Positions 10,812 through 54,600 of a DNA stretch of 64,000 nucleotides are shown here, piece after piece; position 1 is the stretch's first letter, and every line of letters begins with the position of its first letter. The notes under the pieces were generated by a model, which ran no database searches, was not told the origin of the DNA, and saw only the letters and a list, made by a program, of their open reading frames with translations. This DNA comes from a virus: the IMG/VR virus record IMGVR_UViG_3300032313_000500, positions 1 through 64,000 of that record; one strand, 5' to 3'. A program made the position numbers and the translations under genes.

Positions 10812-13800
10812 TATCTTCTCTCCGAGTTTGAACGTTCAGCATCTCTTACTCTTTGCATAACGATGTCTGCTATCTCTTTGGCAGAAGCATTTTGACTTCC
10901 GGTCACATAGAAGTTGTATTCGTTGCCTCCACCGCCAGAACCGACGGTCATTGGCTGCTGGAGTGTTCTTGCAACAGGCATTCCGTTGTCACCCATTGCG
11001 CCTGAACCGGGAACAACATGAAGATGTCTTGCTTTGTTTACTCCGTGAAACTCGGCAAAACCACCAGTTGACCTTACAAGGGATTGGTACTGTCCAAGGT
11101 TTTGTCCAACTAGGTCATACGCTCTTCCTGTTACATGGTCGGAGTTTATAGAACCAAGACCATAGTTTCTGTACCCAGAAGTAACGGTTCTTTTGCCAGT
11201 TAATGCGCCATTCATTGATGCGTGGCGACTCATTGTTTGAGAAAGACGACTTGAGGTTGTGTCACCAAAAGCCTGTCCACGAGGAGTAGAAGTGTCTTCC
11301 GGCTTTGTGTTCCACCATGTCGGAGGAGTGCTGTACCAAGAAGGAGTTGCCTTATCTGTTTCTTCAAAAAAGATTTTCATTTGGTCAATAAGCGCCGTTG
11401 TCTTCTCTGCTATTGCTTCAGGAAGTTTGGTTAAGTCTGTGGTTTCCGTTGGCGTTTTTGCGGTGACTAGCCCCTCTAGGCCTAGCGCCTTCAATAGTGC
11501 TACTTCGGCTTTTCCACCAGACGCCTCCACCAATCTCATTCCAGCAGCGCCAGAAGGTAAAGCAAAACCACCTTCTGCCGCTTTTTCTAGTGCCACCTGC
11601 TGCTCTGGAGTCATAGACTTGAATCGTTTTGTGAATTCGGCAACATTAATTGAATTTCCACCCTGGAGAAGTTTGGCATTTAATTCTCCACCAAGACTGT
11701 TACCTAGGTCTGTGCTTGTTTTGTCAAAATATTCTTTAAGGGCAGGATTATTGGCAAAATCAATCTGCCCTTCCATTCCTTCAAAAGTTCTTCCCTTGCC
11801 GAACGCGCCACCCTGTTCGTAGTCTTTGCGTAATTGCGCAAATGAACTGACCCCCTCGCCAAAGTAGGCGGTGTAGTTTTTGACCTGGTCTTCCATGTAG
11901 GTGTTGATGTCTGTTTCTTTTAATTTTCCAGCGCCCGCTTGTTCTCTAAGTGACTCTGCCCTTTCGTCAATTATTTCTGGAGCACGAGCAGCAGCAGTGT
12001 ATTTTTGGAAAATTGACGTGTTGTCTATTACTATGCTTGTTGTTGCTGCTCTTATTTGTTGAGCAGTTTTAACTGTCGTCAAGCCAAGTTCTTTGAGAAC
12101 TTCGTTGAAGTCTTTAGTGCTGTCCATGAGATTGACGCCCATTGTTTTAGCAAGGGCTATGTTTTCTTGGTCTGATTTACCTGTGATTTTTGCTAAAGCA
12201 TCAAGACGACTGTTGTAGTTTTTTTGAAGTGGAGCCATTGCTGCTTCGCTGACTTCCATATCTTTTTGCATTTTTCTCAAAGCCTCACCAGGCTTCTTCA
12301 TCATGTCTTTATATTGTGTTTCAGAAATTTTAGTGCCGTACTTAGATTGGTTTCTATAAATACTGGTTAGTTTTGATTCTTGTTTTTGTCTATCAACATC
12401 TTTTTTGTTATTAGTTCCATATCCAAGAGGGTTTAAAACCCTGTTGTCCAAAAGGCTCTTGCCACCAAGTTTGGAAACAATTCCAGCAGTCAGGTTTCCG
12501 ACGATGTCCATGTTCATCGTTGTTCCGCCAAGAATTTTTCTTACAATTTTTGGCATTCTTTTACCAGTAGCGCTTTCAAATGCGAGTCCGGCTTGACCAC
12601 CAGTGGCACCACGATTTAAAACGTCTGGAACTATTCCATAATAGTTTTTTCTGTTTAGTGGTACTCCGGCCGTATCTTCAGAAAGTTTTTTACTGTATTT
12701 TAATGCGCCTGCTAAAGCGTTTCTAGTACCACTTCTACCAACGCCAGTTTCTCCGCGTACAGCATCAAGAGCAAAAGAAAAAGCATTATCAATAATGCTC
12801 TGTGCTACTTCTCCAGCAGCCTTTTTTGATGCTTTAACTTCTTCCTTCTTCTTATTTAGTGTTCCCATGATTCCACCAGTAACACCACCAATAAGACCAC
12901 CGATGATTGCGCCTGCGGCCGTACCAATTACTGGAACAAAAGAACCAATAAGTGCACCAGCAGCGGCACCTCCAGCAAGACCACTAACCGCACCACCGGT
13001 TGCGGTCTTTGATTTCATTGCAGTTCCAAGACCTGCTACAGCAATACCCGCAAGTGGGTTCATTTGACCGACTGCAGCGCCTAAAGCGAGCGCACCTTGT
13101 GCTTCTTCTGGAGCAAACTGTGACGCAGCACCGAGAAGCATTGTTGTTCCCATTCGTGCGCTACCAGAGCCTTGGAACTTGCCCATGGCTTTCATTCCTC
13201 TAGATTGTCTTGGTCCAGAACGAGCAGCACGGTTAGCAGCGGCTCTTTGTCTTAGTTTTGCGCCTCTAGTGAATTGCCCTCTGCTGTTTCTTTTGTTGGC
13301 TTTGTCGGCTGCTGCTTTCTCGCCAGTAGGGTCTTCTGCGTCGCCATACATATAGTTGTATGTACCTTGTCTTGCCAACTGCGATATTGCCGCTAACTTA
13401 GGGTTTCTAAGTCTTGACATTCCGACTCTGTAACCGCCTGGATTTGAAGCAGACATTCCAGGACGATTCCAAATCATGTTTCCATCGGGGTCAACGTCGT
13501 TCATGCTGTACGTTCCGCCTGGTCGCACATTCCTTCCACCAAGAAAAGACGAAGGGCCGACTGGGTAACTTCCAACTCTTCCTAGGGCGCTATAGAAACT
13601 GCCTCCACCGCCAGCGCCTGTTCTTGATGCAAAGCCTCCACCGCCAGCGCCTGTTCTTGATGCAAAGCCTCCGCCAGTACCTGTTCTTGATGGAACACCA
13701 CCACCGGTTCCGCCGTAATAGGCTCCGGTTGTTCCTAGCGAACCACCACCGGTTACTCCACCTCTTCCGCCTCCTGGGGCATGACCTCCAGGTGTTCCGC

Positions 13801-15487
13801 TAGTAATGATTGTTGCATTGGGGGCATTGATGGTTGCGTTTTTTGTAACAGCGCTTGCTGTCCATCCACCTTTTGTGCCCTTCATTGCGTTCAATCCACC
13901 ACGAACAGCAAGAAGCGTTGCAAGTGCGCCTACGGTTCCGCCTCCACTCAATGACCGCATCCCCTTTATAAAACCAGTCATTTGGCTGACCATTGCAGAA
14001 ATACCATTGACAACATCATTGATAAATGGCATTAAATCCTGCAGCAACTTTTTCATTTCTGCTTGAAACTTCATTATTTCACCAATGAGTTCACCAATTC
14101 TGTCTCCGAACTCAATTACGGTTGCTTTGTTATTTACTAGCCAATCGTTGAACTGTCCAAAACTTGATGCGGCAATATTTTTGACATGCACCCAAATTGC
14201 GCCAAACATGCTTTCAATTACACGCGCACCCTCTATGAATGGCCTGAGTTTGTCAAGCGTGGCATCCCAGCCGTATTTAAACTCTTTCCACCATCCAGCC
14301 ATCCTGTCAAACATTCCAGTAACGGTTCCAAGGTTTTCGTTAATCAAGTTAACCGAAAGGTCTGTAAGTTTTTGTACCATGCCTACAAGACCATCAAGCA
14401 TTGATGTCATGCCAAATCTTTGTGTACTTCCTGAAATTTTTGCAAAGCCACGGCTGAGGATGCCAAAAATCTCAAACATTGATTTCTTGATTGGTTCCAG
14501 AAGCGGTTGACCCATATCTCCAAACTGAACCTTGAGAAGATTGAAGTATCCTTTAAGTTTATTAATCAAAGTTCCAGATACTGCTTCAAACTGGCCTTCA
14601 AGGCCAGCCGCCTTTGCAAGTTCACCAGACGTAATCGCCGCCTCAAGAGATTTCTTGTTATTGATTTTTAGGTCTTTGAATGCTTTGTCAACTTTTGCTT
14701 TATCGGGAAATAGTTTTTGCGCAGAAACCTTGGCCTCGGAAAAAGATTTTTTTGAATCCTGAAGAAGCGCAACTAGGTCTGCTGCTTTTTTGATTCCTTC
14801 TTCAATCGGCTGACCTGCTGAAGCAAAGTCCATCAGTCCTTTAAGAAGTCCTTGGCTCTTTCCTGTGAATGTTGAAGTCTTTGAGATGGTCGCAAAAGCG
14901 GCGTTTAAGTTTTCTACACCGACAGAAGCAAGGTCTACGTCAGCATGAAGGCCACGCATTACTTGTCTTGTTTGATTTAAACTAGAACCAAACTGGCCCT
15001 TGCTTGTTGTTTTGTATGCAAACATTGCCGCTTGCTGTTCACGTATTGCAGCCGACGCAGCAGCAGCCGCAGCCACCACAGCGGTCATACCAGCAGCAAG
15101 TGGACCTAGGGTAGACCTCATGAGTTTCATGGCTCCATTACCTAGCAGGAACGCAGCATGAACACCCAGCATTGCAGCGCCCATGGCTGCCATTTCTATA
15201 CTGGCACCCTTCAGAGAAAGGCTTAGACCTTTTAATCCGACAGTTCCAACCATTTTGATTGCTTTGTCAAATTCGTCAAATGTACGTTTCCATTTAACAA
15301 GGGTTTTGGTGACACTAGAACCACCTCCGCCGCCGCCACCTGCGCCAGTGCTTGACGCTAGGCCAGAACCAATTTTATTGATTCTTCTCTCAAGTTTGTC
15401 AACGGAACTTTCAACGCTTTTAAGTTGCGCTTTGGCCCTGGCGGCACCGTCTACATCAATCTGTAGTTCAATTTTCGCTTCGGCCAT
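10811..15487 (-). CDS. Tape measure protein with C-terminal M15-type (Zn D-Ala-D-Ala) peptidase domain
   Basis: 1558 aa, Ala/Gly-rich and helical with hydrophobic stretches, downstream of the tail chaperones. The C-terminus has VTSGYR, SDHVTGRAYD and HLHV, the M15/LAS Zn-ligand motifs. Confidence 0.85.
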   Translation of the reverse strand: MAEAKIELQIDVDGAARAKAQLKSVESSVDKLERRINKIGSGLASSTGAGGGGGGGSSVTKTLVKWKRTFDEFDKAIKMVGTVGLKGLSLSLKGASIEMAAMGAAMLGVHAAFLLGNGAMKLMRSTLGPLAAGMTAVVAAAAAASAAIREQQAAMFAYKTTSKGQFGSSLNQTRQVMRGLHADVDLASVGVENLNAAFATISKTSTFTGKSQGLLKGLMDFASAGQPIEEGIKKAADLVALLQDSKKSFSEAKVSAQKLFPDKAKVDKAFKDLKINNKKSLEAAITSGELAKAAGLEGQFEAVSGTLINKLKGYFNLLKVQFGDMGQPLLEPIKKSMFEIFGILSRGFAKISGSTQRFGMTSMLDGLVGMVQKLTDLSVNLINENLGTVTGMFDRMAGWWKEFKYGWDATLDKLRPFIEGARVIESMFGAIWVHVKNIAASSFGQFNDWLVNNKATVIEFGDRIGELIGEIMKFQAEMKKLLQDLMPFINDVVNGISAMVSQMTGFIKGMRSLSGGGTVGALATLLAVRGGLNAMKGTKGGWTASAVTKNATINAPNATIITSGTPGGHAPGGGRGGVTGGGSLGTTGAYYGGTGGGVPSRTGTGGGFASRTGAGGGGFASRTGAGGGGSFYSALGRVGSYPVGPSSFLGGRNVRPGGTYSMNDVDPDGNMIWNRPGMSASNPGGYRVGMSRLRNPKLAAISQLARQGTYNYMYGDAEDPTGEKAAADKANKRNSRGQFTRGAKLRQRAAANRAARSGPRQSRGMKAMGKFQGSGSARMGTTMLLGAASQFAPEEAQGALALGAAVGQMNPLAGIAVAGLGTAMKSKTATGGAVSGLAGGAAAGALIGSFVPVIGTAAGAIIGGLIGGVTGGIMGTLNKKKEEVKASKKAAGEVAQSIIDNAFSFALDAVRGETGVGRSGTRNALAGALKYSKKLSEDTAGVPLNRKNYYGIVPDVLNRGATGGQAGLAFESATGKRMPKIVRKILGGTTMNMDIVGNLTAGIVSKLGGKSLLDNRVLNPLGYGTNNKKDVDRQKQESKLTSIYRNQSKYGTKISETQYKDMMKKPGEALRKMQKDMEVSEAAMAPLQKNYNSRLDALAKITGKSDQENIALAKTMGVNLMDSTKDFNEVLKELGLTTVKTAQQIRAATTSIVIDNTSIFQKYTAAARAPEIIDERAESLREQAGAGKLKETDINTYMEDQVKNYTAYFGEGVSSFAQLRKDYEQGGAFGKGRTFEGMEGQIDFANNPALKEYFDKTSTDLGNSLGGELNAKLLQGGNSINVAEFTKRFKSMTPEQQVALEKAAEGGFALPSGAAGMRLVEASGGKAEVALLKALGLEGLVTAKTPTETTDLTKLPEAIAEKTTALIDQMKIFFEETDKATPSWYSTPPTWWNTKPEDTSTPRGQAFGDTTSSRLSQTMSRHASMNGALTGKRTVTSGYRNYGLGSINSDHVTGRAYDLVGQNLGQYQSLVRSTGGFAEFHGVNKARHLHVVPGSGAMGDNGMPVARTLQQPMTVGSGGGGNEYNFYVTGSQNASAKEIADIVMQRVRDAERSNSERR
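13601..13696 (-). repeat. 33-nt tandem repeat in tape measure gene (GFASRTGAGGG x2 plus a variant)
   Basis: gcctccaccgccagcgcctgttcttgatgcaaa occurs twice, followed by a degenerate third copy. Confidence 0.9.
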
Positions 15488-15523
15488 GGGCTACTCCAGA
15501 ATTACATGAGCGACCAAAGGTTT

Positions 15524-16227: not shown

Positions 16228-16291
16228 AACAGCACATTAGCACAACATCAGATGAGCGGTGCAACTAGGCTGTAAAACGTTTATTTAATTT

Positions 16292-16747: not shown

Positions 16748-16760
16748 CGCTTACTCCTGA

Positions 16761-18236
16761 CTAGACTGTAACAGTTGATGTTAGATTTGATTTGACAATT
16801 GTAACTTCAATCTTGTCACCGATTGGCGAAACCCGGATGCCGAGTTGCGCTTTCACTGTTCCTCCTGCAAGTTGTGCAGTCGTATTGATTGAAGTATCGC
16901 ACTTGACCGAGTAACCAGGGTCAATAAGTTTTCCATTGACATCAAGTGCTTCATACAAAGCCCCTACTGCCTTCATTCTTTCGCAAATTCCGGTCAGTCT
17001 GCCCTCAATTGAAGAGAACAAACCGCCACGACCATCAACAACAGCGAAGATTAGGTCTTCCATTGAAGCGTTAGCCTCGGAGACAACGCTGTTGACTGTA
17101 TCTTGGGTTGTGATGAATCTGAAATTTTCTGTGTCCAGTGAAAGTGAACGTGCTCCATAGATTCTCACCGTGTTGGCAATGATTCTAATTGCGTTTACAT
17201 AGTCAGCATCAAGCGAGTCTCCAAGAGTCTTGTTGACGTCAACTTCAACTCCGGTAACAAAACGAGCAGCAGAGATTAAACCAGCATATGGCTGATGAGG
17301 ACCTGTCTGGTTGTGTGCGAGCGCACGCTTTCCAGCAGCGTAACCATCGGGTGGAATCAATCTTGTTACACCAGCAACGTCCGTTGGAACGTATACCCAC
17401 GGGTAGTAGAGAGCGGCATGCTCGGAACCAGTTTCAGCAGCGAGCGACGCTGCTGCTGCAGTAATTCCTGTTGCTGCTTCCGCAAGATGACAGAGTGCGA
17501 TTCTGTTGTATGTGTTTGCATGAGTAATGAGGTCCGTGTTGATTGCATGTGTTTCTGGGCAAGAAACTGCACCAGGACCAAAAGAATCGTTGAACAACTC
17601 AAGAGCATCAGCAAATGCTGTGAACGAAACGTCAACTGTGTTGTCTGTTCTGTCGTCGGCACCGTCAGTAAATGTTCCAGCACCAAATGCTGTTACTGCA
17701 CTCGCTTCTGGCATTCCGTCTGTCAACTTTACAGCCGCCATGTACTTTGAAGCAATAGGGCTGCTGTTAATTGCATTAACAAGAGCAGCGGTTGTCGTCT
17801 TGAGTCCTGTTGCGTAAACAAGTTCGTCGTTGTAATACAACTTAATGTTCTTACTTGAGGAACTAGCAACGACTTCAATATCCATGTCATGTGCCCAGTC
17901 GCCAGGGCCATTTGCCGTAAGTCGGATACAGTTGGCACCACCAACGCCGCCTACGTTAAGAAGTACTTGTGCTGAAGTTGCAGCAGGCCCTACGACTCTT
18001 GCGATATAGCACTGTGTGCCGCCTTCTTCAAAGAAGGTCTGAACGGTCGGGTGAAGGTATGCATATGTTACATAACCACCAAATGTTTCTTCAAACTCTG
18101 CAAGGCTTGTTACGAGAACTGCCTCATCAGAAGGACCACGGTGAGCAAGTCCAACGAAAAATGCCTGCGACGAAGCGCGCACTGTTGTGCTTGTAGGACC
18201 TGTTCTGACTGCTGTAGTAATTGATACGCCTGGCAT
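16761..18236 (-). CDS. Tail sheath protein
   Basis: MPGVSI..FFVGLAHRGP..SLAEFEETFG..FFEEGG..CYIARV; ALYYPWV..IPPDG; RIYGARSL are sheath family motifs. Confidence 0.92.
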   Translation of the reverse strand: MPGVSITTAVRTGPTSTTVRASSQAFFVGLAHRGPSDEAVLVTSLAEFEETFGGYVTYAYLHPTVQTFFEEGGTQCYIARVVGPAATSAQVLLNVGGVGGANCIRLTANGPGDWAHDMDIEVVASSSSKNIKLYYNDELVYATGLKTTTAALVNAINSSPIASKYMAAVKLTDGMPEASAVTAFGAGTFTDGADDRTDNTVDVSFTAFADALELFNDSFGPGAVSCPETHAINTDLITHANTYNRIALCHLAEAATGITAAAASLAAETGSEHAALYYPWVYVPTDVAGVTRLIPPDGYAAGKRALAHNQTGPHQPYAGLISAARFVTGVEVDVNKTLGDSLDADYVNAIRIIANTVRIYGARSLSLDTENFRFITTQDTVNSVVSEANASMEDLIFAVVDGRGGLFSSIEGRLTGICERMKAVGALYEALDVNGKLIDPGYSVKCDTSINTTAQLAGGTVKAQLGIRVSPIGDKIEVTIVKSNLTSTVTV

Positions 18237-18250
18237 GTGACCTCCGTGTC

Positions 18251-18628: not shown

Positions 18629-18667
18629 TTTTGCTCCTGATTGACTTTAATTAGTGTACATCACTAT

Positions 18668-19686: not shown

Positions 19687-19687
19687 C

Positions 19688-20575: not shown

Positions 20576-20600
20576 TGTTTCCCCCTTGGGGACTTATTAA

Positions 20601-20798: not shown

Positions 20799-20829
20799 TG
20801 CTTAACTCCTTGAATTGGGTGCTCGGCAA

Positions 20830-20838: not shown

Positions 20839-20842
20839 TTAA

Positions 20843-28562: not shown

Positions 28563-28623
28563 GGTTTTCTTTCTGTAGGGCAATTGCACATTAGGCATGT
28601 TTTATGCGCTACGGTGTGAGCAT

Positions 28624-39376: not shown

Positions 39377-39392
39377 AGAAAGCGTGGCCCGT

Positions 39393-42300: not shown

Positions 42301-45077
42301 TAACCGCAAGAAGACCTGGTCCGCAACCACTTTTAGGAATTGATGTTGATGGTGCTGACGGCATTGCCTCAAGACAGGCTTCAAGACTCAGTCCGCAGGA
42401 ACTTTCCGCCCTTTCTTCTGCTGTAACGAATCCACCTAGAATTCTTTCATATCCAAACCCGCAAAACGTTCCTGAACTTACTTTACTTTTGGAAGATATT
42501 GAAGAGGTTAGACAGGTTTTTGAACGCAATAATTTAACACCACCAATTACCGTTGCGGATAATGAACTCCAAAATGCAGCCCCAGTTATGTCTGGATTGG
42601 ATAAATCGGTGCTTCCAAGCGACATGGTCGTTGAACTTGAAATTGATACGCCAGAAGACACTTCGCCAGGTTCAATCTATGAAATGTCTCAAATATCTTC
42701 GGCTCAACTCATAACGGATTCAAACACAGAGGAAGTTGATGTTCCACGGTCTGGTTTCTCTTCCACTACCGGAATGAGAACAAAGGCCGGAATTGCCGGG
42801 AGACTAATTGCAAGTAAGAGAACAAGAAAACTTCTTGAAAAAGCAGGAATTGACGCAGAAAGAACAGACGTTGTTCAGTTGATGAGTGAAGTTGCTATTG
42901 GTTTTTCGGTTGGAGGACCGTACGGCGCACTTATTCCTATAGCGCGACGTGGAAGCAGAGACGCTGCCGAGCAAGCGCTAAAAATGATGGTTGAACGCGG
43001 ATGGATTGAGCAAGACCTTGCTAACAAAATTGAAAAATATGGTCTTGACAGAATTGCCGCAGAAGGACTTCCTGACGAAATACTTAATTTAGCAGAATCG
43101 GCCAAAGACAGACTCTTAACGGAAGAATCAAAACGTAGGGCTCTTGATTTTGGTTCGGTTCTTCAAGAAAGAAGCATTGAATTATCTGAAGCAACTCGTG
43201 AAAAAGTATCAGAATTAGCCGACACAGGAAAAGAAAAGGCTCGCGAATTAGCAGCCTCGGGCATGGATAGAGCAAGAAGATTAAGAAGTCGCTTTGACAG
43301 GGACTCCGAAGAATTGGATGCAGGTGACCCGTTTTCCCTTCCTCCATCAGGTGGCGCTGTTGATATGCCTTCCCCATACGACGACCCATTTAAGTCCGCG
43401 TTTGTTGACATTGAGTTTAAGCAACTCGGTTCTTCAATCGGGGAGCAAAAGCAAGTTAAGAAAACCAAGGTAAGAGTTGCTGTTCCCGCTGGCTCAAAAG
43501 GCAAGATTGAATCAGGTAAAAGCAAGGCAAGCAACATGATTCTCCCTCCAGGAAAAGTAAAATTTACTGGAGTTGGCGAAGATGGAGTTCCTGAAGCAGA
43601 AATTACTGAACAGATGTCCGCTGAGGAATACATGAAGAATGTTGAAAAGATGTCTTCAGAAATTGCCTCATCTTCCAACAAACCAAGTCTAAAAAAGGCT
43701 GCAAAATTAAGAGCAGATACTGCTAAAAAAATGCGTCAAGAAATGACCGCCAAGTCAGGAACACCTCAGTCAATGTCCGGAATATCAAAAGTTGTATTTG
43801 ATAAATCAAACTCAATAATGGAAAGAGGAAAAGCGGCTGGTATTAATTTCTTCACTCTTGAAAAAGTAAAAAATGACGATACGGATATTGAGACATCCGA
43901 GTACGTGCGTATGTATCAAGAAAAACTTGTATCAACTATTAATAATTACAGCAAATCTTTACCATCTCGTCTTTTTGATGAAGAAATAAGCGCAGATACT
44001 AAAAAGTTTATTTACAGCAATTCAGTAAAAGAGATAGTTAAAGAGGTTAACAAAGTAGCAATGTTGATACACGAAGACATAGATAGAAGAGTACGTGTAT
44101 CAATGTCTAAATCTTCGTTAGAACAATTTGTTGGTTCTGGAAAAATTGCAAATATTGACGTTGATAGTGAATCTTTAAAGATTTTAAAAAACAAAAGAAA
44201 TTCAATGTTGGGTAATTCTCCTGGAATTAAAGAGTTTTCTTTTACTCCTGTTGAGTTTATGCACGGAGTAATGATTGAAAAAATTGAAAAACAACTTTAC
44301 GAAAATGGCACCCATGTTGGCTCCGAAGAATTTACAGATTACGGAAGAGGAATAGAACTTGTACTTCGCGCAGAAAATTCCCCAAGAATTGGATACGGAA
44401 GAAAAGAATCTTACAAAAACGGCGGAATTTTTGTACAAATAAACGAAGAAGACGAAAACCTTATTCAGGCTTCAATTTTTGGACAAATGTTTATGTCAAA
44501 AAATGGTGCAGAAGAATACTTGGCGGAGATTATTGAAGCAAGTCTTTCTGGTGACTATTCAAAACTAATAAAGAAAAATGACGAAGATGTATTTGAAGCG
44601 TTTATAGTTGGAGAAATATCACTTAACGATGTTGAGCACATCAAAATACCTTTGTCAATATTCAACATCAGAAAGAAAAGGGTCCCCAAGAGCAGCATGA
44701 TTGGTGGGGCAGACTCAATCAATATGATATTTATGAACAGAGGAGTTCCAAAAGAAAAAATTAAAGACTTCTTTGATAAAGACGGAACAATAGGTGGCGG
44801 ATACACGCCAAAGCATTTGTCTTACCTAAACGAGTTAGAGGCTGCAGAAGAATTTAAAGAAAACCTAATATCTCTAGGCATATCTGAAGTCATATTTACG
44901 AACAAAGACGGAATTGACATCATGAGTGAGGACACTTGGGTGACCCCACCTCCGACGAAGAAAAAGGGCAAAGACGCCTTGAAGGAGATAGCAAGAAAAG
45001 AAGTTATGTCAATTATTGACAAAATTGCCCCACCACCCAAAAAGCCAATTCCTAAAAAGGAGACTGCAAAGAAATGA
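39393..45077 (+). CDS. Giant multidomain head-cargo protein: HExxH zincin-like, split ART-like and C-terminal DUF3626-like domains
   Basis: AHERAHW plus a distal ETLAE; LDKSVLPSD..PGSIYEMSQISSAQL with RVAVPAGSKG..MILPPG; DYGRGIELVLR..FEAFIVGEISLNDVEHI. Start moved to ATG 39393. Confidence 0.6.
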   Translation: MTGVNINKIRHYAPGFNNRTTRLDADMSALLFKAGTRVISSSERLIADVSIKAAMGAGAPADDKKRGLQSAGKSKYININGLVYDPAAKKQEGQFFKPWITERERINAMRSSDPVPNWGWVDAHPEHQNKLEAPRNSKGKVTRYPVNPKTGEPMKNQGFDQEFKSLGPTLGERNPGGKLLARTAKAFGLVVDALGKFRCPPGTPAANRFTNERGEGCFDISVAQVRNLVGSLADSMQGPQNRSQIVSSLASAGLSIAEIRKSYKENGIAGLASLARRVGIDYVGEKWNDMSYVSQIPVRLREISGLTMGAQSRMERIVQEKAATIDFLAEYYGITETDEYKKIGEIVKAMSADPDSPLAPNQFELLFRGGTPESHEDWAIDALIETHIEAINQKLGLGGTPDVIRRDPVMMARVAADAKEEYLRAKAAGEVTPITQFIDAGLRREKDFRLGAFEDMVIAAHERPHSFTMPNGSKRTYVADVGAGYQYDKNGEAWPDTILINSGPALLGFRDTPPAGYMDLYEATGGDIDDQWRAVASAMDADERLRAYATLWGTDLAATEGRGWRDFGAQTSAHERAHWGQMDAIFQYHADNGTGRNIEDLNNDELMDLTKEFMTKASPEILSDVFGIDIDDLIDKRFDALAGAYSQVKQQEALGELTGGGTSEEFNYARTLALMETLAELKANKAVGLIGDDPELDAILEKMDPLPPLTGGSISPSGGIVPSRPDGSPAPRFVPSGRVRPTLPGSAPALPTNAGRVVTTTPGRSGGRGRRGPVDPFEKERYGKVPTMIKEGRFTLEDIDEFLYGEDGKGGLKRMLESVANMRTKKNGYTDPALVKRKRLLNELVDTMGISFPELEALALKAKRGESLTPEEKSKLVDAISHLRNGANEFKAKSIEARKKFEDYRSVDVSRATGDGSEYDEKDTNVLNLEQIQDEIEMYEALFNRVGRGIAPAVHDILTMTENGPYPHRLTARRPGPQPLLGIDVDGADGIASRQASRLSPQELSALSSAVTNPPRILSYPNPQNVPELTLLLEDIEEVRQVFERNNLTPPITVADNELQNAAPVMSGLDKSVLPSDMVVELEIDTPEDTSPGSIYEMSQISSAQLITDSNTEEVDVPRSGFSSTTGMRTKAGIAGRLIASKRTRKLLEKAGIDAERTDVVQLMSEVAIGFSVGGPYGALIPIARRGSRDAAEQALKMMVERGWIEQDLANKIEKYGLDRIAAEGLPDEILNLAESAKDRLLTEESKRRALDFGSVLQERSIELSEATREKVSELADTGKEKARELAASGMDRARRLRSRFDRDSEELDAGDPFSLPPSGGAVDMPSPYDDPFKSAFVDIEFKQLGSSIGEQKQVKKTKVRVAVPAGSKGKIESGKSKASNMILPPGKVKFTGVGEDGVPEAEITEQMSAEEYMKNVEKMSSEIASSSNKPSLKKAAKLRADTAKKMRQEMTAKSGTPQSMSGISKVVFDKSNSIMERGKAAGINFFTLEKVKNDDTDIETSEYVRMYQEKLVSTINNYSKSLPSRLFDEEISADTKKFIYSNSVKEIVKEVNKVAMLIHEDIDRRVRVSMSKSSLEQFVGSGKIANIDVDSESLKILKNKRNSMLGNSPGIKEFSFTPVEFMHGVMIEKIEKQLYENGTHVGSEEFTDYGRGIELVLRAENSPRIGYGRKESYKNGGIFVQINEEDENLIQASIFGQMFMSKNGAEEYLAEIIEASLSGDYSKLIKKNDEDVFEAFIVGEISLNDVEHIKIPLSIFNIRKKRVPKSSMIGGADSINMIFMNRGVPKEKIKDFFDKDGTIGGGYTPKHLSYLNELEAAEEFKENLISLGISEVIFTNKDGIDIMSEDTWVTPPPTKKKGKDALKEIARKEVMSIIDKIAPPPKKPIPKKETAKK

Positions 45078-46077: not shown

Positions 46078-48067
46078 TAGAGAAATAAATTTCGTTAAAA
46101 GAAGAGTTGCCCTACTTTCCGTAAAGACGGTACGTAAGGTAAACCCCGTAATTACCATGCGCCTAAACGGCCAGCAAAACGTAATAGATTACAAGGCCTT
46201 AGCAAAACGTTCTGGACTAACACGAAAGTACAGCGTGAAGGTTGGAATACTTGGCACGCACTCAACAATCGGCCAGGCTGCTCAATCTGCAATTTCTGCT
46301 GCAACTCCAGGAAACCTGAGCCCAATAAGAAGCCCGATTCGTTCTGGCTTATGGGGTGCCTTAACTCCTGGAAAGCCAAGAATTCCAGGTGGAACTGGTG
46401 GGGCAAATCGTGCCAGTCGTTGTCCAGAGGGATATCAGTATGGCGGTCGCTTTACTGACTCTCGTTTTTCTACATGTGGGGCAAAACTCTTTGACATACC
46501 TTCCGCTATTGGTTTAGCAATTGGCGCACTGAGAAGGATAGCCCGTGGCGCTAGAGCGGTTTCTGGAGACTCAACTCCAATCACTGGCGAAACTCCACCA
46601 GAGTCAATAGTTCAATCAAGACGTCCACAGATTCCAAGAGTCGGAAATCCCAACCCTGCAGCACGCGCGGCTGCGGCAAAAAACATCGTCTCTCAAATTG
46701 GGCAGACAGACGCGGCAGTCGTAAGAATGGTCAGAAAAGACGGTTTCGCATTGGAGCCAGTAGTCTCAGCGCAAGTACTCAGAGCAATCCCCGACAACAG
46801 GGACATGGAAGGCGCTGACTACATATTGTCAGTTCAGGACCTTCCACAACTCGGTGGCCAAGAACTCGGACTTTTATCAAATACCGGCGTTACTAAACTC
46901 ACCTATGTTTTGCCAGGTGGCTCAACCCTCTCGCTTGAAAAGAAGAGGCAACTCACTGTTGGTGAAAGAAGAAAACTTGGGCGCACCGTTAATGCTGCAT
47001 CAAAAATTGACATATCAAACGACCCCACTGCTCGCCTAAAAGAAGTCGTTGCTCAAACTGGGGATGGAATAGGTTATTCGGAAAACTTTTTAAACATCAA
47101 GAACCCAAATGAGGTGGTTTCTAAAGGTGGAAAGTCGGTTCCGAGATGGGCTGACGAATTGTTCGGCAAGGGAAGAAAAGCAAAGCCTGCAGCCAATGCA
47201 GAAAGAGCAACAGATTCAAGTAGTGCTGTGGGTAAAAACATCACAAGTGTTGACGCTGCAGTTGACCAGATAATGTCCGGAAGACCACTTTCTGAAATTG
47301 ACCCAATGATTTTGCAACAGGCTCTTACAAAGGCAAACGTATTTAAGAGACAAAAATTGGACCGAAGAAGAGAAATGCTTGAAACGCCAAATGGCAACAA
47401 GTACATGCTCTATTCCTCGTCTGGCAAATATGAGCACCTTGGTCAAAAACTTGCAAGCGATATCCAGCAGCACCTTGGTCTTGAGTCACCTGACGTTTTC
47501 TTTGTTGGCGAGGGAGATAAGAGAAAGTACATAGTGGAGGACCCTTCTTCTCTAATTAGGGGATTCCAGGTTGACCGTAGGCGTAAATTCTCCGACTACA
47601 AACCGGAAGATGTAGCAAAAATGCTTGTTTCCGACTGGCTTACGGACCAGAGAGAAAGAGACCCAGGCTCAATTGTTCCTGTTTCAAACGGAACTGACAC
47701 AAAGCCGGTTGTTACCAACAACTTCACTTCTGGACTTACTGACCTTGACCAAGTGTCAATTGTTGAGCGTCAAAAACTAACATTATCTCAATTCATGGAC
47801 GCAAATAGGGCTGAGACTTACTCGCAATATTTCCAAAATTTACAGCAACAACAGAGATTTGCCTTCAGAAGAGAGATTGACGCTCTACTATTAAGAGCAA
47901 GACAATTTAACTTTACACAATTTAAAAATCGCCTTTACAACGATGGTCGCTTAACCGACGCAGAAAAAGCACACCTGAACATCGTTGGGCGCATTCTGGA
48001 AATAAGAATTCAAAACTATGCAGGTAGTAGGGAAATTTTAATGGAAATCCTCGGAGTCAAAAAATGA
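46046..48067 (+). CDS. Head-cargo protein with RCPEG module and degenerate HipA/PI3K-like C-terminal domain
   Basis: RCPEGYQYGGRFTDSRFSTCG; C-terminal HLGQKLASDIQQHLGLESPDV..LVSDWLTDQRERDPGSIV. The true start may be the TTG near 46070. Confidence 0.55.
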   Translation: MILNRTTTLSNREINFVKRRVALLSVKTVRKVNPVITMRLNGQQNVIDYKALAKRSGLTRKYSVKVGILGTHSTIGQAAQSAISAATPGNLSPIRSPIRSGLWGALTPGKPRIPGGTGGANRASRCPEGYQYGGRFTDSRFSTCGAKLFDIPSAIGLAIGALRRIARGARAVSGDSTPITGETPPESIVQSRRPQIPRVGNPNPAARAAAAKNIVSQIGQTDAAVVRMVRKDGFALEPVVSAQVLRAIPDNRDMEGADYILSVQDLPQLGGQELGLLSNTGVTKLTYVLPGGSTLSLEKKRQLTVGERRKLGRTVNAASKIDISNDPTARLKEVVAQTGDGIGYSENFLNIKNPNEVVSKGGKSVPRWADELFGKGRKAKPAANAERATDSSSAVGKNITSVDAAVDQIMSGRPLSEIDPMILQQALTKANVFKRQKLDRRREMLETPNGNKYMLYSSSGKYEHLGQKLASDIQQHLGLESPDVFFVGEGDKRKYIVEDPSSLIRGFQVDRRRKFSDYKPEDVAKMLVSDWLTDQRERDPGSIVPVSNGTDTKPVVTNNFTSGLTDLDQVSIVERQKLTLSQFMDANRAETYSQYFQNLQQQQRFAFRREIDALLLRARQFNFTQFKNRLYNDGRLTDAEKAHLNIVGRILEIRIQNYAGSREILMEILGVKK

Positions 48068-51000
48068 AAAAAGTATCTACCCTATTTGATGCACTGCGTA
48101 ATGAAAAATTTGCTATTGCTATTCAAGATGATTATGGAGTCAAATACTATGGCTCCGAAGGCCAGGGAAAAGAATGGTCCGACTGGGCCAACTCTCTTAG
48201 CACCAAAACTATTGACGCAAACAATATTCCAGCAGGAATCATTCAGGGGCCCTACAAAAACATTAGCGAGCATTCCTTAAAGTCATTGCTGACTGCTTTT
48301 GGAAACAACATTAGCGAAATTGGCAACTCCTATACAGACTCCAAGTCATACTCTTACAAAAGTTCTGTAAAGATGGACAACGGTGCCCGTGTTCCAGCAG
48401 TAATGGATACACCAATTGGTCACTTTACCAAGTCCCAGTATTCAAGCGCTGTGAATTACAAGGGTCTTGCTATTCGCACCCAAATCAAAGAGGGAAGTTT
48501 TCTTTTTGAAGCAAGAGCAAACAATTACGCATTCAACTTTGACAACTGGATGTACAACTCAACCCCGTCAAAAGCCGAAATAAAGTCACTTCGTCACAGA
48601 ATTGACACAAACGTAGGTCGTTCTTCCGAAAGACGTCTGGGCATGAAATTTAAAGCCGCTCTTGTTGAAAGAGATGGACGCCACAGAGTTGGTTACGCGC
48701 AAACACTGGAAACCAAATCACTTGAAGACTCTCTTGAGTTGAAAGGAATTGGTCAAAGAATAGGTGGAGGAGCACGCATCGGCAGAAGAGCGGCTCGCAG
48801 TATGGCCATGTTTGACCCTAAAGCATGGGACGGCGATGGCGATGGCGTAGTGCAGGAAGGTACACCCTTTGAAAGACCTGCAATTCCCGGCATCAACGAC
48901 AGGGCAACTGGCGGTGCTGTTGACGCAGATGCTGCGAAGAAGGCATGGAAAGAATTTCAAAAGAATCCAGGCAGTTCAACGCCTTCTAGAGAGTTGAGTC
49001 CTGCACGCAGAGCCATGCGCGAAGGAAGCCGCTCAGTAGGAAGACAAGTTCTCACTAACCGTAAGCCAGCGGCAGCGGGTCGTAAATTACCTGACTCAAA
49101 ACCAATCAAGAGAAGCGGTCTTGCATCAAGATTGCCTGGCGACAAAAACGAAGCAGGAGTCAACCCACTAGTAGCAAAAGAAGTAGTTCGCAAAATAGAA
49201 GATGTTCTCTATAAACGAGACACATTAGATTCATTCAGTGCTTTCATTGATGGACTTGGTCCAGACGGTGGTCAGGAATTAAGTGCTGAACAAGTTTTTG
49301 ACATAAAAGAAGCAATCCAGTTGTACGACAATGAAGAATACGACATGGACGACCTTTACAGCAGTGTTTCAGCAGCCGTCACCAGAAAGAAGCCCGACGC
49401 TAAACCAAGTCAATCCGGAATGCGTTCACGTGTTGGTAAAGCACAAATGGACAGACAAGTTAATGGTCTCGCATCACGAAGTGGTCGTTCTAAGAAAAAA
49501 TCAAAACTGAAAGCAGTACCAGGACTTGACAAGGTTGACGAACGAGATGGTTCCCTATGGGCGTCTTTGACACCAGAACAGCAAGAAGTTGTAAAGAAAA
49601 ATACTCAAACAGCATATGAAAGACTTCAGACATCCATCAAAAAAGACAAGTATCTCAGCACGTGGTGGGATGAATTTTTACGTCTTCCTCGCAAAAAGGG
49701 AGCAACAGACGCTGACGGTAATGAGTGGTCTGAGCAATCAAGAATTGCTGGAGAGGCATTCACTTCTTTTGAAGTAGCAATAAACAGGTCAATTGACGGC
49801 GCAAATTCAGAAATACAAGCCGACGAGAGAGCGCTTGCAGCAATGAGACCTACAGGGTCTGATGCTGAAATTAAAAAAGCAGAAAACAGAATTGCAAATA
49901 AGAAGAAACAGGTTCAAAGAATTCAAAAAATTCTAGACGACCTTAAAACGTACGACCAAATGGACAAAGCCGATGACTGGTCGCTTCTTGAACACCTTCA
50001 CCCAGAACAAAGAAAGAAATCTTTCGGTACTGGATTGCAAAAAGATGAAATAAATCTGATTGTTAGCCCTTTTGCTGATGGAAAACTTCCAAAGGGAATG
50101 AAAGTTGGAGAACCATCAACAATTTTTGAAGAAATTGGTGGAGTTAAAAGAGCAAAGCCTCGTATTATCGGAGAAAAAGGTGATGCAAAACTTGCAGACT
50201 TTGCAGACAGAATTCTTCGCCCCAACCCAGTAAGGGCGGAAAGAAGAAGACTACGAAAGGCCGGAAAAGGTAAGACGTTCACAGAAGAATCGCCACGCGA
50301 AAAAATCTCAAAAGTTAAAAGAAGAATTTCTAAAGCAAAACGTCAAGTACAAAGCAAGATTCGTGGAAAGCGCAATCCAGAGAATATTGAAAGCGCTTTG
50401 GAAAAAGTCAGGAAACGTAACACTCCACTTATCGGCAGAGACAAAGACGACAATCCGGTTATCTCTCGCGAAACAATTGAGGGTTTTGCAAAACTGCTAA
50501 GAGGATACAAGCCTTCGGAAAAAAGAACCAAAGATGGAGCGACCAAAGGTAAGAACGCCGACTCGTTCCTTGGACAAATCTGGGACTCACAAAACTTCTC
50601 TGCACTTCCTACAGCGATAACTGAAGAAGAGGCCAGGGAACTAATATCTTTAGGATGGACACCAATTCAACGTGGGCATGGAGGAACAACACCCTCCCAG
50701 GCAGCCTCATGGGCGGAAGATTATATTTACGACCCTAGAAGATTTATTACTGGAGAAGGTGGACAAGCAGTAGGCCCTGGAGAATACTGGGCCCACCCTG
50801 AGAGCACCGGATGGGACAGTTGGATTAGAGGTCAATCTTCAAACACTGCAACACTTGCTTTCTTGCCACCTAACTCAAAAGTCCTAACGGAAGCGCAAGC
50901 GTCAAAACTTCAACAGGACGGCAATAGTATTGCAAACGCAATCGGTGGATACATAACTGGTGCTGGTAGTGGTGGAAAAGCGGAAGAACTTGACCCACAA

Positions 51001-51360
51001 GACCTTGTTAGAGAAATCAAACAGCATCTTTCAAGCGTGTTACCAATGGATTCAGGTGTTTGGAATAGCGAAGTAGGAAAAGTATATTCTCAAATATTCA
51101 GCCTCATGGAGGCTGGAAACTCGGCGGAAGGCAAGCAACTCTATGCCGCTCTGCAGTTCATGTTAAAACAAAGAGACTCTCATAAAAACATTTACGCCAT
51201 GATTCTTGGATACGACGGTGTTGATTATGGAAAATCAGACGGAAGATTGCTGATGTTTAACCGCGGTGCGCTATCTGTTGTTGGAGAAGCAGTTGTTCCT
51301 CTTGATAAACTCAAAGCCATAGCAGCGGGCCAACCTTGGCCACCCAGAAAGGACGCATAA
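48064..51360 (+). CDS. Head-cargo protein with DGDGDG module and C-terminal PARP-like ART domain
   Basis: FDPKAWDGDGDGVVQEGTP; QNFSALPTAITEEE..IQRG..GEGGQAVGPGEYWA..LGYDGV resembles MuF-associated ART-like domains. Confidence 0.55.
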   Translation: MKKVSTLFDALRNEKFAIAIQDDYGVKYYGSEGQGKEWSDWANSLSTKTIDANNIPAGIIQGPYKNISEHSLKSLLTAFGNNISEIGNSYTDSKSYSYKSSVKMDNGARVPAVMDTPIGHFTKSQYSSAVNYKGLAIRTQIKEGSFLFEARANNYAFNFDNWMYNSTPSKAEIKSLRHRIDTNVGRSSERRLGMKFKAALVERDGRHRVGYAQTLETKSLEDSLELKGIGQRIGGGARIGRRAARSMAMFDPKAWDGDGDGVVQEGTPFERPAIPGINDRATGGAVDADAAKKAWKEFQKNPGSSTPSRELSPARRAMREGSRSVGRQVLTNRKPAAAGRKLPDSKPIKRSGLASRLPGDKNEAGVNPLVAKEVVRKIEDVLYKRDTLDSFSAFIDGLGPDGGQELSAEQVFDIKEAIQLYDNEEYDMDDLYSSVSAAVTRKKPDAKPSQSGMRSRVGKAQMDRQVNGLASRSGRSKKKSKLKAVPGLDKVDERDGSLWASLTPEQQEVVKKNTQTAYERLQTSIKKDKYLSTWWDEFLRLPRKKGATDADGNEWSEQSRIAGEAFTSFEVAINRSIDGANSEIQADERALAAMRPTGSDAEIKKAENRIANKKKQVQRIQKILDDLKTYDQMDKADDWSLLEHLHPEQRKKSFGTGLQKDEINLIVSPFADGKLPKGMKVGEPSTIFEEIGGVKRAKPRIIGEKGDAKLADFADRILRPNPVRAERRRLRKAGKGKTFTEESPREKISKVKRRISKAKRQVQSKIRGKRNPENIESALEKVRKRNTPLIGRDKDDNPVISRETIEGFAKLLRGYKPSEKRTKDGATKGKNADSFLGQIWDSQNFSALPTAITEEEARELISLGWTPIQRGHGGTTPSQAASWAEDYIYDPRRFITGEGGQAVGPGEYWAHPESTGWDSWIRGQSSNTATLAFLPPNSKVLTEAQASKLQQDGNSIANAIGGYITGAGSGGKAEELDPQDLVREIKQHLSSVLPMDSGVWNSEVGKVYSQIFSLMEAGNSAEGKQLYAALQFMLKQRDSHKNIYAMILGYDGVDYGKSDGRLLMFNRGALSVVGEAVVPLDKLKAIAAGQPWPPRKDA

Positions 51361-51689
51361 TGTCTGAAGACGAATTTGTAGAAAAACACCGTGAGTACTC
51401 CGTGTACGCAGACTGGCCTCCGTTTTCAATATCTAGCAAAAAAAGAAATGACTATCTTGAAGATGTTGTTAAAGAAGACAGACGAATAGTTTCAAAAATT
51501 AACGCCAAAGACGAAGATGCATTTGAAAGAATGTACTCAACCGTAGAGGTTAAGTGGTCTGACGACCTTGAAGAAGCCCGCCTCTACCAAAAGAGGTATG
51601 GCAAAGAAAAGATTGACGCATTTCTCGCTGCTTTAGAACTGGAAGGTCTTGAAGAAGACAGCGACGGCGTTCCATTTGGAATTTTTTAA
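51360..51689 (+). CDS. Small acidic hypothetical protein
   Basis: TAATG coupling at 51358-51362; MSEDEFVEKHREYSVYADWPPF. Confidence 0.65.
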   Translation: MSEDEFVEKHREYSVYADWPPFSISSKKRNDYLEDVVKEDRRIVSKINAKDEDAFERMYSTVEVKWSDDLEEARLYQKRYGKEKIDAFLAALELEGLEEDSDGVPFGIF

Positions 51690-51690
51690 T

Positions 51691-54600
51691 GTGGAAAGCG
51701 AACTCAGAAGTCAAATTGCTGCCGTAAGGCGAGCAGCGGATATTGGATGTTTTGGTGCGCACCAAATTTCAAACGGTGAATGGCTGCCCTGTTCTTCAAC
51801 AAAACAATTTCTGACAATTACTAACGGTTTTGATGTCAAGTCAAGAATTTCACTTGACGACATGGAGAACTGGTCTTCAATCAGAAAATCAAAAGGAAAA
51901 AAGCGAAAGAAGCGTTGGGAAAAACTTCGTGAGCGCAGAATACTTGGAATTGAATCTCTGGAAGGCGGCGGTCTTGTTTCTCCAAGAAACTCAACAAACA
52001 TGATTAATGGTGGCACAAATCCACCAATCACGCATGGTGCTTCAAGTCCTTCGGGTATGTCTACTAAGAGCATTCAGCCCGCATTCATGCCTAGAGACAA
52101 CGACCCTGACGTGTTTGTTGATATTGAATCAGCAAGAAAAAGAGCGCAGCAACTTGGCTGTATCGGTGTAAGCAGAAGAATGTCAAAAGGTGGAAAGGTT
52201 ATATGGATGCCATGTACAAATATCACCGACTACAACAATCTGACCGGAATGACTTCTCTTGGAAGAACAAATCTTCAAAAAAGAAATGAAAAAATAATTA
52301 GAACCGTAATAAAAGAAAATCTTAAAAAGAAAAAAACAACTATTCAAGAAGATATTTACGGCAAGGCTCTCGGTCCAAGAATTAGAGGAATAGCCCGAGC
52401 AGCAGTTTCAAGGTTTGACGCAAATGCTTTTGACGGAGACGAAGACGGCTTAATCCAAGACGGAACCACGTTTGAGAGACCAAGCATTCCAACTCCATCC
52501 ATACCAAAACCCGCAGACAGAGAAGCCACACCAAAAACTGTAGACAGAGAAGTTTCAGCATCAGAAGTTTCTGCAGTACGCAAATTCATGAGCGCCATGA
52601 CTTCTTCGCAAATGGATTCTTTCAGAGGTGAACCAATTGAAGCGTACGACGGAGTTCCTGGGTCAAGGCGTGGAATGGCATCCAGTGGTCCTGGATTCAT
52701 TATCGGTCGCGGTCCAAAACCAGTAAGCGGAAGAAAGACACCAAAGCCTTTATCCATAGCGGAACTGAGAAACCCAGAAGCAAGTCCAACCAACCCATTT
52801 AGAAATCTCGGTGGAAGACTGATGGGCAAATTGATTAGGGGAATGGTCAAGCCTGAACATAGAAACAAACAAGATAGAACGACTTTCCTCATTGGTGGAA
52901 ATACTGGTTCGGGTAAAACAACCGTACTTGACGGACATTTAATACCAAAAGGCCTAGTCCCCTCACACGAGGAAGCCGCGCTCATTGACCCTGACTTCAT
53001 CAAGAAAGGTCTTGTTGGATACAACGACGGGGATGGTGCTGGTCGTGTTCATAGAGAGTCTCAAGCAGCAACTGACAAGACAATTAGGGATGCCGCTTCT
53101 GACCAAATGGACATGGTAATCACAGGTTCTGGTGCGTCAAGACAAATTCAACACATGCGTGAAGCGTCTGAGCGTGGAGAAAAGGTAGTCGGACACTGGG
53201 TGCACGTTCCACAACAGGAAGCATCTAGGAGAATTAAAAAAAGAATGGATGAAACCAATAGGTACATCCCAGACAACACAGCCCATATGGCTCAGAGTAT
53301 TCCTAAAGTTATTTCAACAGGATTTGAAGAAGACTTACTGGATGAGTTCTACCTATGGGACAACGACGTACCCGAAGGTAAAGAGCCAAAACTTATTGCA
53401 AAAAAAGTTCGTGGCAAAAAGTTTGAAATATACGACGCTAAAAAATTTGAAGAATTTGCCGGAAGTAAAAAGTGGGCAGACACCTGGGTTGCAACATCTG
53501 AAGGAAAAGATTCAGACAATGACAGCGCATCTGTACAGATGAGTAAAAATAGAAGCGGAAATCCTGCAAACAGAGGCGGGAGTGGACGTGTCACGCCTCC
53601 CAAAAACCCGCGAACCCCAATACCTAGCACAGGACAAGGCTCTCCCTTGGACCTAACTCCGTACTCACCGCCATCAAGAGAAAATTCTGTAAAAAAAACA
53701 TTAATAGGAAAAATTCAAAAAATTATACCGCGTGTTCAATTTGAGGGAGTACTTAGAATAGCATCGCGTATTCCAAAGGGAATGCCTCTTTATGAAGAAA
53801 CTGACGACAATCAAATTAAAATAAATTTAAAATCTTTGCAAATTAATCTTGACACTCCTCAGGATATTTTGAAAGCAGTTGATACCTACGCTCCACTCAA
53901 AGCAGACAACGAATCAATGGAGGATTTTGCAGCAAGAATTATTCAAACTATTCCGGCTATGAGGTGGGCGGTTGGGTCCAGTGGTCCAGGAGGAGCAAAA
54001 AGACTTGCAGACATATTAACTCAATCTGGATTCAGTAATAATTCTCAAGAAAAAGTAAGAGAAATACTAAAGAAAAATTTAGAAAATCCATCATTTGCTG
54101 AATTAGTAAAAATACACGGAATGCCATTGATTGTAAACGGTGACACATTATTTACAACAAACGAAAAACTAGCAGCAGGAGGGACGGATGCTTTTCATAC
54201 TGCAGGTTATGGGTTTATCCTCATGTCTGATTCTCTTCTACGGGAAGGAAAGTCGTATTCTCTTGGCTGGACCGAGGAAACCCCCCTTTACAATTATGTT
54301 GGAGAAACAATGCGTCACGAGTGGTTTCACTACTTAGATGGAATAATGAACGCAATGGACCCTGTTGCGAGAAACAATAGAATACAAAAGTACATGAAAA
54401 GTGTAAATGATTTTCTTTCAGACCCTCAGGCTCGTTTTGAAAAAGCGCTAGGAACTCCAGAAGAAATGATTAAAGAAGCAGAGTCAATAGCAGTAAGAAG
54501 TATTGCTTTTGCTCAAGGAAAATCAAAACGTGATGCCATAAGGTATTTAAGGAATAGGAAAGACAAAGATTATTTGGCTTTAATGGATTTAGCCATTGGA

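Follow-up and report, generated by a model that had tools for sequence, protein, structure and literature searches.

A G-Φ-x-S tag in the module joints of giant phage cargo proteins and in a tape measure protein as a probable proteolytic processing site

The virus record IMGVR_UViG_3300032313_000500 of IMG/VR (118,470 bp) encodes several giant proteins in which a short peptide motif, G-Φ-x-S with F, L or M in the second position, occurs again and again. In this study, the first 64 kb of the record (the window) were analysed together with related sequences, and the motif was found to be a genuine, strongly non-random and family-wide protein tag, which lies in the joints between cargo modules and in the tail tape measure protein (TMP). 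A sequence-only reading of the same window had listed the copies and had offered three functions for them, namely a second cleavage site, a phospho-acceptor for a co-packaged kinase and a translocation signal. Among these, the second cleavage site fitted best, given the disordered linkers at module borders, the lineage-specific forms of the tag and a distinct lysine site in the same proteins. The tag is best regarded as a proteolytic processing tag that is read by a phage protease, a reading to which a probability of about 0.62 is given; what we infer is cleavage itself, together with its scissile bond, reader and timing.

The copies in the window are carried by giant proteins encoded on the plus strand and by the TMP on the minus strand, and every copy listed earlier was verified to be in frame at its position. 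Ten copies are found in the S78 prohead protease fusion (31018-37890; 2290 amino acids, aa), in which the protease is followed by cargo modules. From the N-terminus, these are GMASRT at 32575-32592 (aa 520), which is kept in relatives; GLSSST at 32746-32763 (aa 577) and again at 33205-33222 (aa 730), the latter at the edge of a module missing from most relatives; GFSSST at 33583-33600 (aa 856); GFASRV at 34498-34515 (aa 1161) and GLGSSS at 34555-34572 (aa 1180), between which relatives carry a module of ~150 aa; GFSSST at 35308-35325 (aa 1431), with G and S conserved to at least 90% in 50 sequences; GFSSRT at 36412-36429 (aa 1799), in which G-F-S-S is constant while the flanks diverge; GFDSRT at 37276-37293 (aa 2087), which reads GFQSST or GFNSRT in relatives; and GFSSST at 37444-37461 (aa 2143), which opens the conserved C-terminal module and whose G is invariant in 50 sequences. 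The three other tagged giant proteins of the window are named here by their first nucleotide. The second giant head protein (the 39261 protein; 1938-aa open reading frame, ORF, at 39261-45077) has one near-match, GFSSTT, at 42753-42770 (aa 1165), which is kept in close relatives. The 1098-aa cargo protein at 48064-51360 has three copies (GLASRL, 49117-49134; GMRSRV, 49417-49434; GLASRS, 49465-49482), and the 1083-aa cargo protein at 51649-54900 has one (GMASSG, 52672-52689). In the TMP (1558 aa; 10811-15487), GLASST lies at 15347-15364 (aa 42), and a Gly-rich hinge at aa 597-623 (13619-13699) holds GVPSRT (13682-13699) and GFASRT twice (13652-13669 and 13619-13636).

Shuffling demonstrated that these copies exceed what composition alone would give. 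With the regular expression G-[FLM]-x-S-[RS]-x, the ten copies of the fusion compared with 0.30 in global shuffles and with 0.35-0.46 in local shuffles within 40, 20 or 12 residues; not one of 3000 shuffles reached ten. The 48064 protein contained three copies against 0.15 expected; the TMP contained three against 0.28-0.37, a number attained by 8-17 of 3000 shuffles; and the lone copy of the 51649 protein was not significant taken alone. Over all 47 ORFs of the window, 19 copies were counted, compared with 2.6 in shuffles. Moreover, positions outside the expression were informative in 25 sites: R at -2 in 15, which agrees with the earlier remark that most copies are preceded by Arg; S or R at -1 in 16; A or S at +2 in 22; T or S at +5 in 19; and G at +6 in 10. 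In its extended form, the consensus reads R-[SR]-G-[FLM]-[AS]-S-[RST]-[TS]-G.

A position-specific scoring matrix (PSSM) built from the tag sites was run over the whole 118-kb genome with a cut-off score of >=9, and it returned 31 matches, compared with 2.1 in shuffles. The best 28 matches were confined to five giant proteins, including one of 3212 aa encoded beyond the window, and the TMP; none of these 28 was in the major capsid protein (MCP), the portal, the sheath or the ribonucleotide reductase (RNR). Among the individual scores, the near-match of the 39261 protein was second-highest in the genome (26.6), GMASSG of the 51649 protein scored 20.5 and GLGSSS was lowest in the fusion (15.0). 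The tag had not been seen in these four proteins by earlier inspection either. The bare expression also matches the sheath (GLFSSI) and a 124-aa ORF, but neither of these matches is supported by the PSSM.

The possibility that the tag has no reader, being a by-product of Gly/Ser/Arg-rich linkers or of repeated linker duplication, was also considered. The linkers are indeed rich in G, S and R, and the two GFASRT copies of the TMP are an exact 33-nucleotide (nt) tandem duplication. However, this pair is the only codon-identical one: the codons of the copies vary, with a mean nucleotide identity of 58%, so that the signal resides at the protein level, as had been stated before. The local shuffles, which keep the composition of the linkers, remained far below the observed number, and linker composition is therefore no explanation. 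Furthermore, diverged relatives keep the G and S of the core unchanged although the flanks vary, and a homologous site in the TMP shifts its form together with the cargo (see below). These observations largely refute an origin without a reader, which is regarded as very improbable. At the invariant Ser codon, TCN was used in 25 of 28 sites against a background of 73%, a bias that was not significant when all sites were counted.

The tag was found throughout a large family of such fusions. Searching with the fusion protein yielded 295 metagenomic proteins, which are 1.3-3.9 thousand residues long, and the statistics given here concern the 120 that were listed. All family members start with the same protease and then differ in their cargo, which includes sigma-70 region 4, helix-turn-helix, pentapeptide repeat, UvrD helicase, RNase T, ArdC-N and MPTase-PolyVal domains. 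Beyond residue 450, the core G-[FLM]-x-S occurred 1153 times in the 120 listed fusions, compared with 179.5 expected, and 114 of the 120 lay above every local shuffle. The form of the tag is uniform inside one genome and different between lineages: G-F/L-[AS]-S-[RS]-T in this phage, and elsewhere G-L-A-S (up to 15 copies), G-M-R-S-x-R (up to 16), G-L-S-S-G or [RKG]-[LF]-S-S-G-[RK]. In Gordonia phage GMA6, the portal and the S78 protease are related to the present ones, but each cargo protein has its own gene and the tag is lacking. Literature searches for an S78 cleavage consensus or for the tag found nothing relevant.

The position of the tag relative to the modules is consistent with a separator. 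Residues 1400-2290 of the fusion (891 residues) were modelled with AlphaFold2 from a 50-row alignment at a mean predicted local distance difference test (pLDDT) score of 68, and the model consists of folded blocks; between them lie segments that score below 50 in pLDDT and account for 24% of the residues. All four copies within the modelled region (aa 1431, 1799, 2087 and 2143) lie in such low-scoring linkers, so the predicted disorder bears out the flexible segments between apparent domains described earlier. In close IMG/VR relatives, whole modules are gained or lost with edges exactly at tag copies; for example, a deletion in two of them (L001 and L005) starts exactly at the aa 577 copy and stops exactly at the aa 856 copy. 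Likewise, 24% of BLAST segment ends against family members fell within 15 aa of a copy, compared with 14% expected, which none of 2000 random sets matched.

These data also bear on the possibility that the tag is an uncut short linear motif, namely an ejection hand-over or translocation signal bound by a component of the virion or the host, or an unfolding spacer. Such a motif would be expected in exactly those proteins that are expected to exit the virion, and the tag is indeed found in the cargo and the TMP and is missing from shell, sheath and baseplate proteins; its place in segments predicted to be disordered is also compatible with binding. The proposal of a translocation signal is therefore in agreement with the marking of the TMP. 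However, at least ten copies occur in one protein, at nearly every module border, and the indels are bounded by copies, which suits a separator better; one copy at each module border is a poor fit to a signal needed once per protein. In addition, no candidate binding partner was found. An uncut motif is thus considered unlikely.

The claim that the kinase of the fusion is bracketed by two copies was borne out. A protein-kinase-fold module at ~aa 1550-1790 (35665-36387, plus strand) lies between the copies at aa 1431 and aa 1799, and its model matched CtkA of H. pylori in Foldseek (3akl; E 3.9e-5; TM score 0.59 by target). GenBank relatives of this module found by tblastn (Aeromonas ST4, Yersinia fHe-Yen8-01 and Pseudomonas Jeremy) are labelled ADP-ribosyltransferase, a label that may be wrong for this domain. 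A second kinase-type module, a zeta-toxin-type P-loop kinase, was identified in the 51649 protein (Pfam PF06414; aa 408-547; 8e-9). The earlier reading had proposed that the tag is phosphorylated by the co-packaged kinase. The acceptor would be the invariant Ser, and the kinase either the CtkA-like module or the zeta-type one; the basic residues upstream of this Ser together with the presence of two kinase-type modules in the cargo are in keeping with such a role. However, the CtkA-like module is present in only 41 of 119 family members, and the density of the tag is 7.7 per 1000 aa in the fusions without it and 6.3 in those with it. Moreover, two complete related genomes (G004 and G007) have no CtkA-like module, and G007, in which the tag is equally dense, has no PF06414 domain either. 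Since complete relatives retain the tag without the kinases, phosphorylation is disfavoured and seems highly doubtful as the function of the tag. Zeta-type kinases are not known as protein kinases.

The tag is also found in a tail protein, and there it follows the lineage. Whole relatives from IMG/VR (G003, G004, G005 and G007) were compared with the present phage (G000), and for each genome a PSSM was built from its cargo proteins only. In G000, G005 and G007, the TMP was the top-scoring non-cargo protein by the PSSM of its own genome. The TMP of G007 carries K-F-S-S-G-R at residue 35, which scored 21.4 with its own PSSM and at most 4.4 with those of other lineages, and the TMP of a further relative, G006, carries an exact R-L-S-S-G-A at residues 38 and 681. 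At the positions homologous to GLASST (aa 42), RLSSGA is found in G006, KFSSGR in G007 and GLATT in G005; in the hinge homologous to aa 597-623, GLASAT and GLASSG are found in G005 and RLSSGA in G006. Thus, the TMP bears the form of its own lineage at homologous positions in four of six lineages. This concerted change of the homologous TMP site and the cargo tags suggests a common reader whose preference varies by lineage. Close to the C-terminus of the same protein, an SxHxxGxAxD motif is present (11114-11143; aa 1449-1458; SDHVTGRA in relatives), which in our view recalls the zinc site of LAS/M15-type cell-wall peptidases.

A different site, centred on lysine, appears to serve as the capsid-type code. 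In four of the giant proteins, a single K-[SA]-L-G lies 20-35 residues upstream of a conserved box: at aa 445 of the fusion, aa 239 of the 51649 protein, aa 37 of the 3212-aa protein and aa 208 of the 39261 protein. In the fusion, the site is K-A-L-G at 32350-32361 (plus strand), which stands as xKALGxxLGGG in the family consensus and is a candidate S78 cut site. The box that follows, FDPxAWDGDGDGxVQEGTPxxRP (aa 468-490; 32419-32487), is near-invariant in the family, and the first tag copy comes ~30 aa later. The same DGDGDG box is common to four otherwise unrelated giant proteins, namely the fusion, the 48064 protein (aa 250-272; 48811-48879), the 51649 protein (52414-52482, after K-A-L-G at 52363-52374) and the 3212-aa protein (~aa 53-80), and from its sequence it looks like a common head-entry module. 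Within it, the DxDxDG pattern resembles that of Ca-binding sites. The 48064 protein has the box, yet the expression K-[SAT]-[LIV]-G found no lysine site in that protein. In the 39261 protein, K-S-L-G (39882-39893, plus strand) is located 32 aa upstream of an RCPPG box, KFRCPPGTPAAN, which takes the place of the DGDGDG box, and E-x-K-[SA]-L-G is kept in ten homologues from six lineages. The RCPPG box (39978-40013; KFRCPPGTPAANxFT..G..CF), which replaces the DGDGDG box after the lysine site, is invariant in this second head protein in all six lineages.

The MCP carries a related lysine site. The HK97-type MCP (55257-56615, plus strand; phmmer to HK97 gp5, E 1.5e-50) has no G-Φ-x-S tag, and its candidate delta border reads L-K|S-V-Y-G (55524-55541). 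K-[ST]-[ILV]-G stands at the border between the variable and the conserved part in most of 80 related MCPs. A comparison of this site with the tag form of the cargo carried no information on covariation, the MCP region being nearly invariant over lineages. HK97 gp5 is cleaved between K103 and S104, and its mature chain begins with S-L-G. The simplest reading of these sequences is that the S78 protease uses an HK97-like K|[SA]-L-G site and that G-Φ-x-S is a second code, because the lysine site is separate from the tag and occurs once per cargo protein, where it was found, as well as at the MCP border. The tag and the maturation motif of the MCP hence differ, though the inner Φ-x-S strings of the MCP leave some doubt.

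The chief alternative is that the tag is cut by the fused S78 protease inside the procapsid, so that the polyprotein would cut itself into modules at head maturation, as with T4 gp21 or phiKZ gp175. The S78 domain itself is well defined (fusion aa 1-176; 31018-31545; Pfam PF04586 at aa 23-169, E 3.3e-11; phrog_80, 1.4e-27), with invariant H61 and S125. It stands in cis to the most tag-rich protein and is universal in the family, by construction of the search. The N-arm region of the MCP has the conserved Φ-x-S strings ALPSGT and QFGSIQ, on account of which an S78 reading of the tag stays possible, and the MCP of GMA6 has R-G-F-G-S at the equivalent place. On the other hand, the S78 domain is near-invariant (72-99% identity over 50 family members whose tag forms differ) while the form of the tag shifts genome-wide; the MCP delta border and the entry modules of the cargo bear the other, HK97-like K|[SA]-[LIV]-G site; and the TMP, which is not inside the procapsid, has lineage-matched copies in four of six lineages. 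Cleavage of the tag by S78 in the procapsid is accordingly a possible but rather doubtful explanation, and the S78 protease is retained as the second choice for the reader.

The leading candidate for the reader, at somewhat less than even odds, is an HExxH...E domain of the 39261 protein, which is encoded two genes downstream of the fusion. This candidate gluzincin peptidase domain (41055-41507, plus strand) contains HERAH at 41112-41126 and invariant Glu residues ~100 aa further on, and H139, E140, H143, Q146, E241 and E245 (numbered within 40698-41960) are invariant in 11 sequences or loci from six lineages. Proteins of this type are only ~20% identical between lineages, compared with 72-99% for S78. 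When a structure model of the domain was compared with 48,161 representative chains by VIA-align, the catalytic domain of anthrax lethal factor (LF) gave Z 7.2 with 160 residues aligned, followed by PPEP-3 (Z 5.1) and PPEP-2 (Z 4.6), neighbours that we take to be M34 zincins. Like the M34 peptidases (the LF catalytic domain and PPEP-1, -2 and -3), the domain has HExxH and a downstream Glu helix; no significant sequence match to them was found, and the likeness is one of modelled fold and of motif, not a demonstrated membership. PPEPs and LF cut flexible segments, and LF favours upstream basic residues and a hydrophobic P1' residue; gluzincins and other zincins commonly choose a hydrophobic P1' residue. 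From this preference, a cut at G|Φ would be predicted. A search of the ESM Atlas with the 39261 protein gave sub-threshold leads only (LPD23, 0.79). A reader other than these two, including a host protease, is regarded as quite unlikely. MPTase-PolyVal (PF18818) was rejected as a universal reader, being found only in the RLSSG lineage (G006 and G007). Further candidate metallopeptidases among the cargo belong to a second family of HExxH modules, T-H-E-W-[GA]-H-[YW]-[LF], of which the 3212-aa protein has three and the 51649 protein one (54316-54330; HEWFH).

Taken as a processing tag, the motif would be a short sequence that a protease recognises, set in the flexible stretches by which the modules of giant polyvalent proteins are joined; these proteins are probably packaged in the head and reach the host along with the DNA. 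Each cargo protein would enter through a module in which K|[SA]-L-G is presumably cut by the fused S78 protease and is followed by the DGDGDG or RCPPG box, and the G-Φ-x-S code would then split the module strings, with the kinase-fold module and the conserved C-terminal module among them, into separate domains. The reader may be a phage enzyme with a lineage-dependent preference, and such variation would explain why all copies of one genome, including those of the TMP, share one form. The HExxH reader would cut on the N-terminal side of the hydrophobic residue (G|Φ). It could be at work outside the capsid or once ejection has taken place, and the TMP would then be within its reach. In its boldest and tentative form, this amounts to a two-code system in which the lysine code is used by the capsid protease for head entry, while G|Φ-x-S is cut, possibly post-ejection, by a fast-evolving injected zinc protease on every protein that exits the virion; the result would be a chain of exchangeable effectors that takes itself apart, while tag and reader would co-evolve genome-wide.

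Several observations weigh against processing as outlined here. No cleavage product is known for any tagged protein, and all relatives are uncultured metagenomic contigs. The lineage forms overlap, and G000 itself also holds GMRS, GFDS and GLGS; the uniformity within genomes could therefore partly reflect modules that were shuffled together with their linkers instead of a changed reader. The match of the TMP was not significant in two of six lineages (scores of 7.0 in G004 and 9.0 in G003). Two conserved Φ-x-S strings of the MCP, A-[LM]-P-S-G-T and x-F-G-S, lie close to the residue aligned by phmmer with HK97 S104. As for the reader, the zincin assignment consists of the motif and a middling match (Z 7.2) to a model with a mean pLDDT of 56; a Foldseek search of the PDB with this model returned nothing at E <=0.001, and Pfam found no family for the HExxH domain in any of the 11 homologues.

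The giant cargo genes of the window sit between the portal gene (28852-30909, plus strand) and the MCP gene (55257), and the fifth giant protein (3212 aa) is encoded at 66590-76228 of the genome. A Pfam search of the 3212-aa, 1938-aa and 1098-aa proteins gave no family. With its listed GTG start, the 39261 gene would share 116 nt with its upstream neighbour, and the true start probably lies nearer to ~39393, because the Atlas record of this protein begins at residue 45. The N-terminus of the 51649 protein holds two DUF3721 repeats (PF12518, E 3.5e-12; 51649-51800; aa 21-50). On the minus strand, the TMP was assigned from weak TMP matches in PHROG, its location downstream of the sheath gene (a tail gene, 16761-18236) and its homologues in five relatives, and TerL is encoded at 27255-28598. 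A PAPS-reductase-like gene (phrog_2302, E 6.8e-74) is located at 21381-22523 within the block of tail and structural genes. The 447-aa ORF at 27255 is unrelated to another of the same length at 117048, and no terminal repeat was found when one was looked for.

If the tag is a cut site, it supplies a rule by which hundreds of giant unannotated phage proteins could be parsed into their working modules, and it points to a large reservoir of host-takeover enzymes from uncultured, apparently freshwater actinobacterial phages. It would also mean that a single phage can use two separate proteolytic codes, the first to bring proteins into the capsid and the second, which a tail protein shares, to release modules. 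Furthermore, the tag and its reader would constitute a naturally occurring linker-protease pair that is portable.

The proteins described here are closest to the polyvalent proteins that Iyer, Burroughs, Anand, de Souza and Aravind (2017; PMC5512222) reported in phages and conjugative elements, for which the passages retrieved from that paper predict the release of modules by an associated peptidase. In both, many unrelated enzymatic and binding domains are joined on one phage polypeptide and an associated peptidase is present, here the N-terminal S78 and the candidate HExxH domain of a neighbouring protein. The polyvalent proteins are encoded among late or virion genes and predicted to travel with the DNA; the present genes lie between those of the portal and the MCP, and their products may travel likewise. 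According to the same passages, assemblin-like peptidases are rare and always C-terminal in the polyvalent proteins, unlike the N-terminal S78 of the present fusions; term searches of PMC5512222 retrieved no passage on a recurrent linker tag, on lineage-specific forms or on marking of the TMP. Head cargo that is cut at short motifs is also known from the internal proteins and Alt of T4 (a capsid-targeting sequence cut by gp21), from phiKZ with gp175 and from SPN3US with gp245, and in these motifs the last residue is Glu ([LI]-x-E or [SAG]-x-E), the same code being used for capsid and cargo (PMC9026906, PMC5694885, PMC10052503). The likeness consists in ejected proteins that are packaged in the head, a short consensus and a phage protease of the assemblin fold; there, one N-terminal targeting piece is removed, whereas here the capsid-type code (K|S-L-G) differs from the linker tag, one protein can hold as many as 16 copies of the tag, and a tail protein bears it too. 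With HK97, the present phage shares an MCP that is a clear homologue of gp5, a protease of the Pfam S78 family and K-[SA]-L-G sites, which lie in the entry modules of the cargo and, in relatives, at the delta border of the MCP; HK97 has no cargo polyproteins, and G-Φ-x-S is unlike its site. Finally, the demarcation motifs of polymorphic toxins (VENN, PT-TG and similar) are single motifs that stand ahead of one variable C-terminal toxin domain. Unlike these motifs, the G-Φ-x-S tag occurs at least ten times per protein and stands between all modules.

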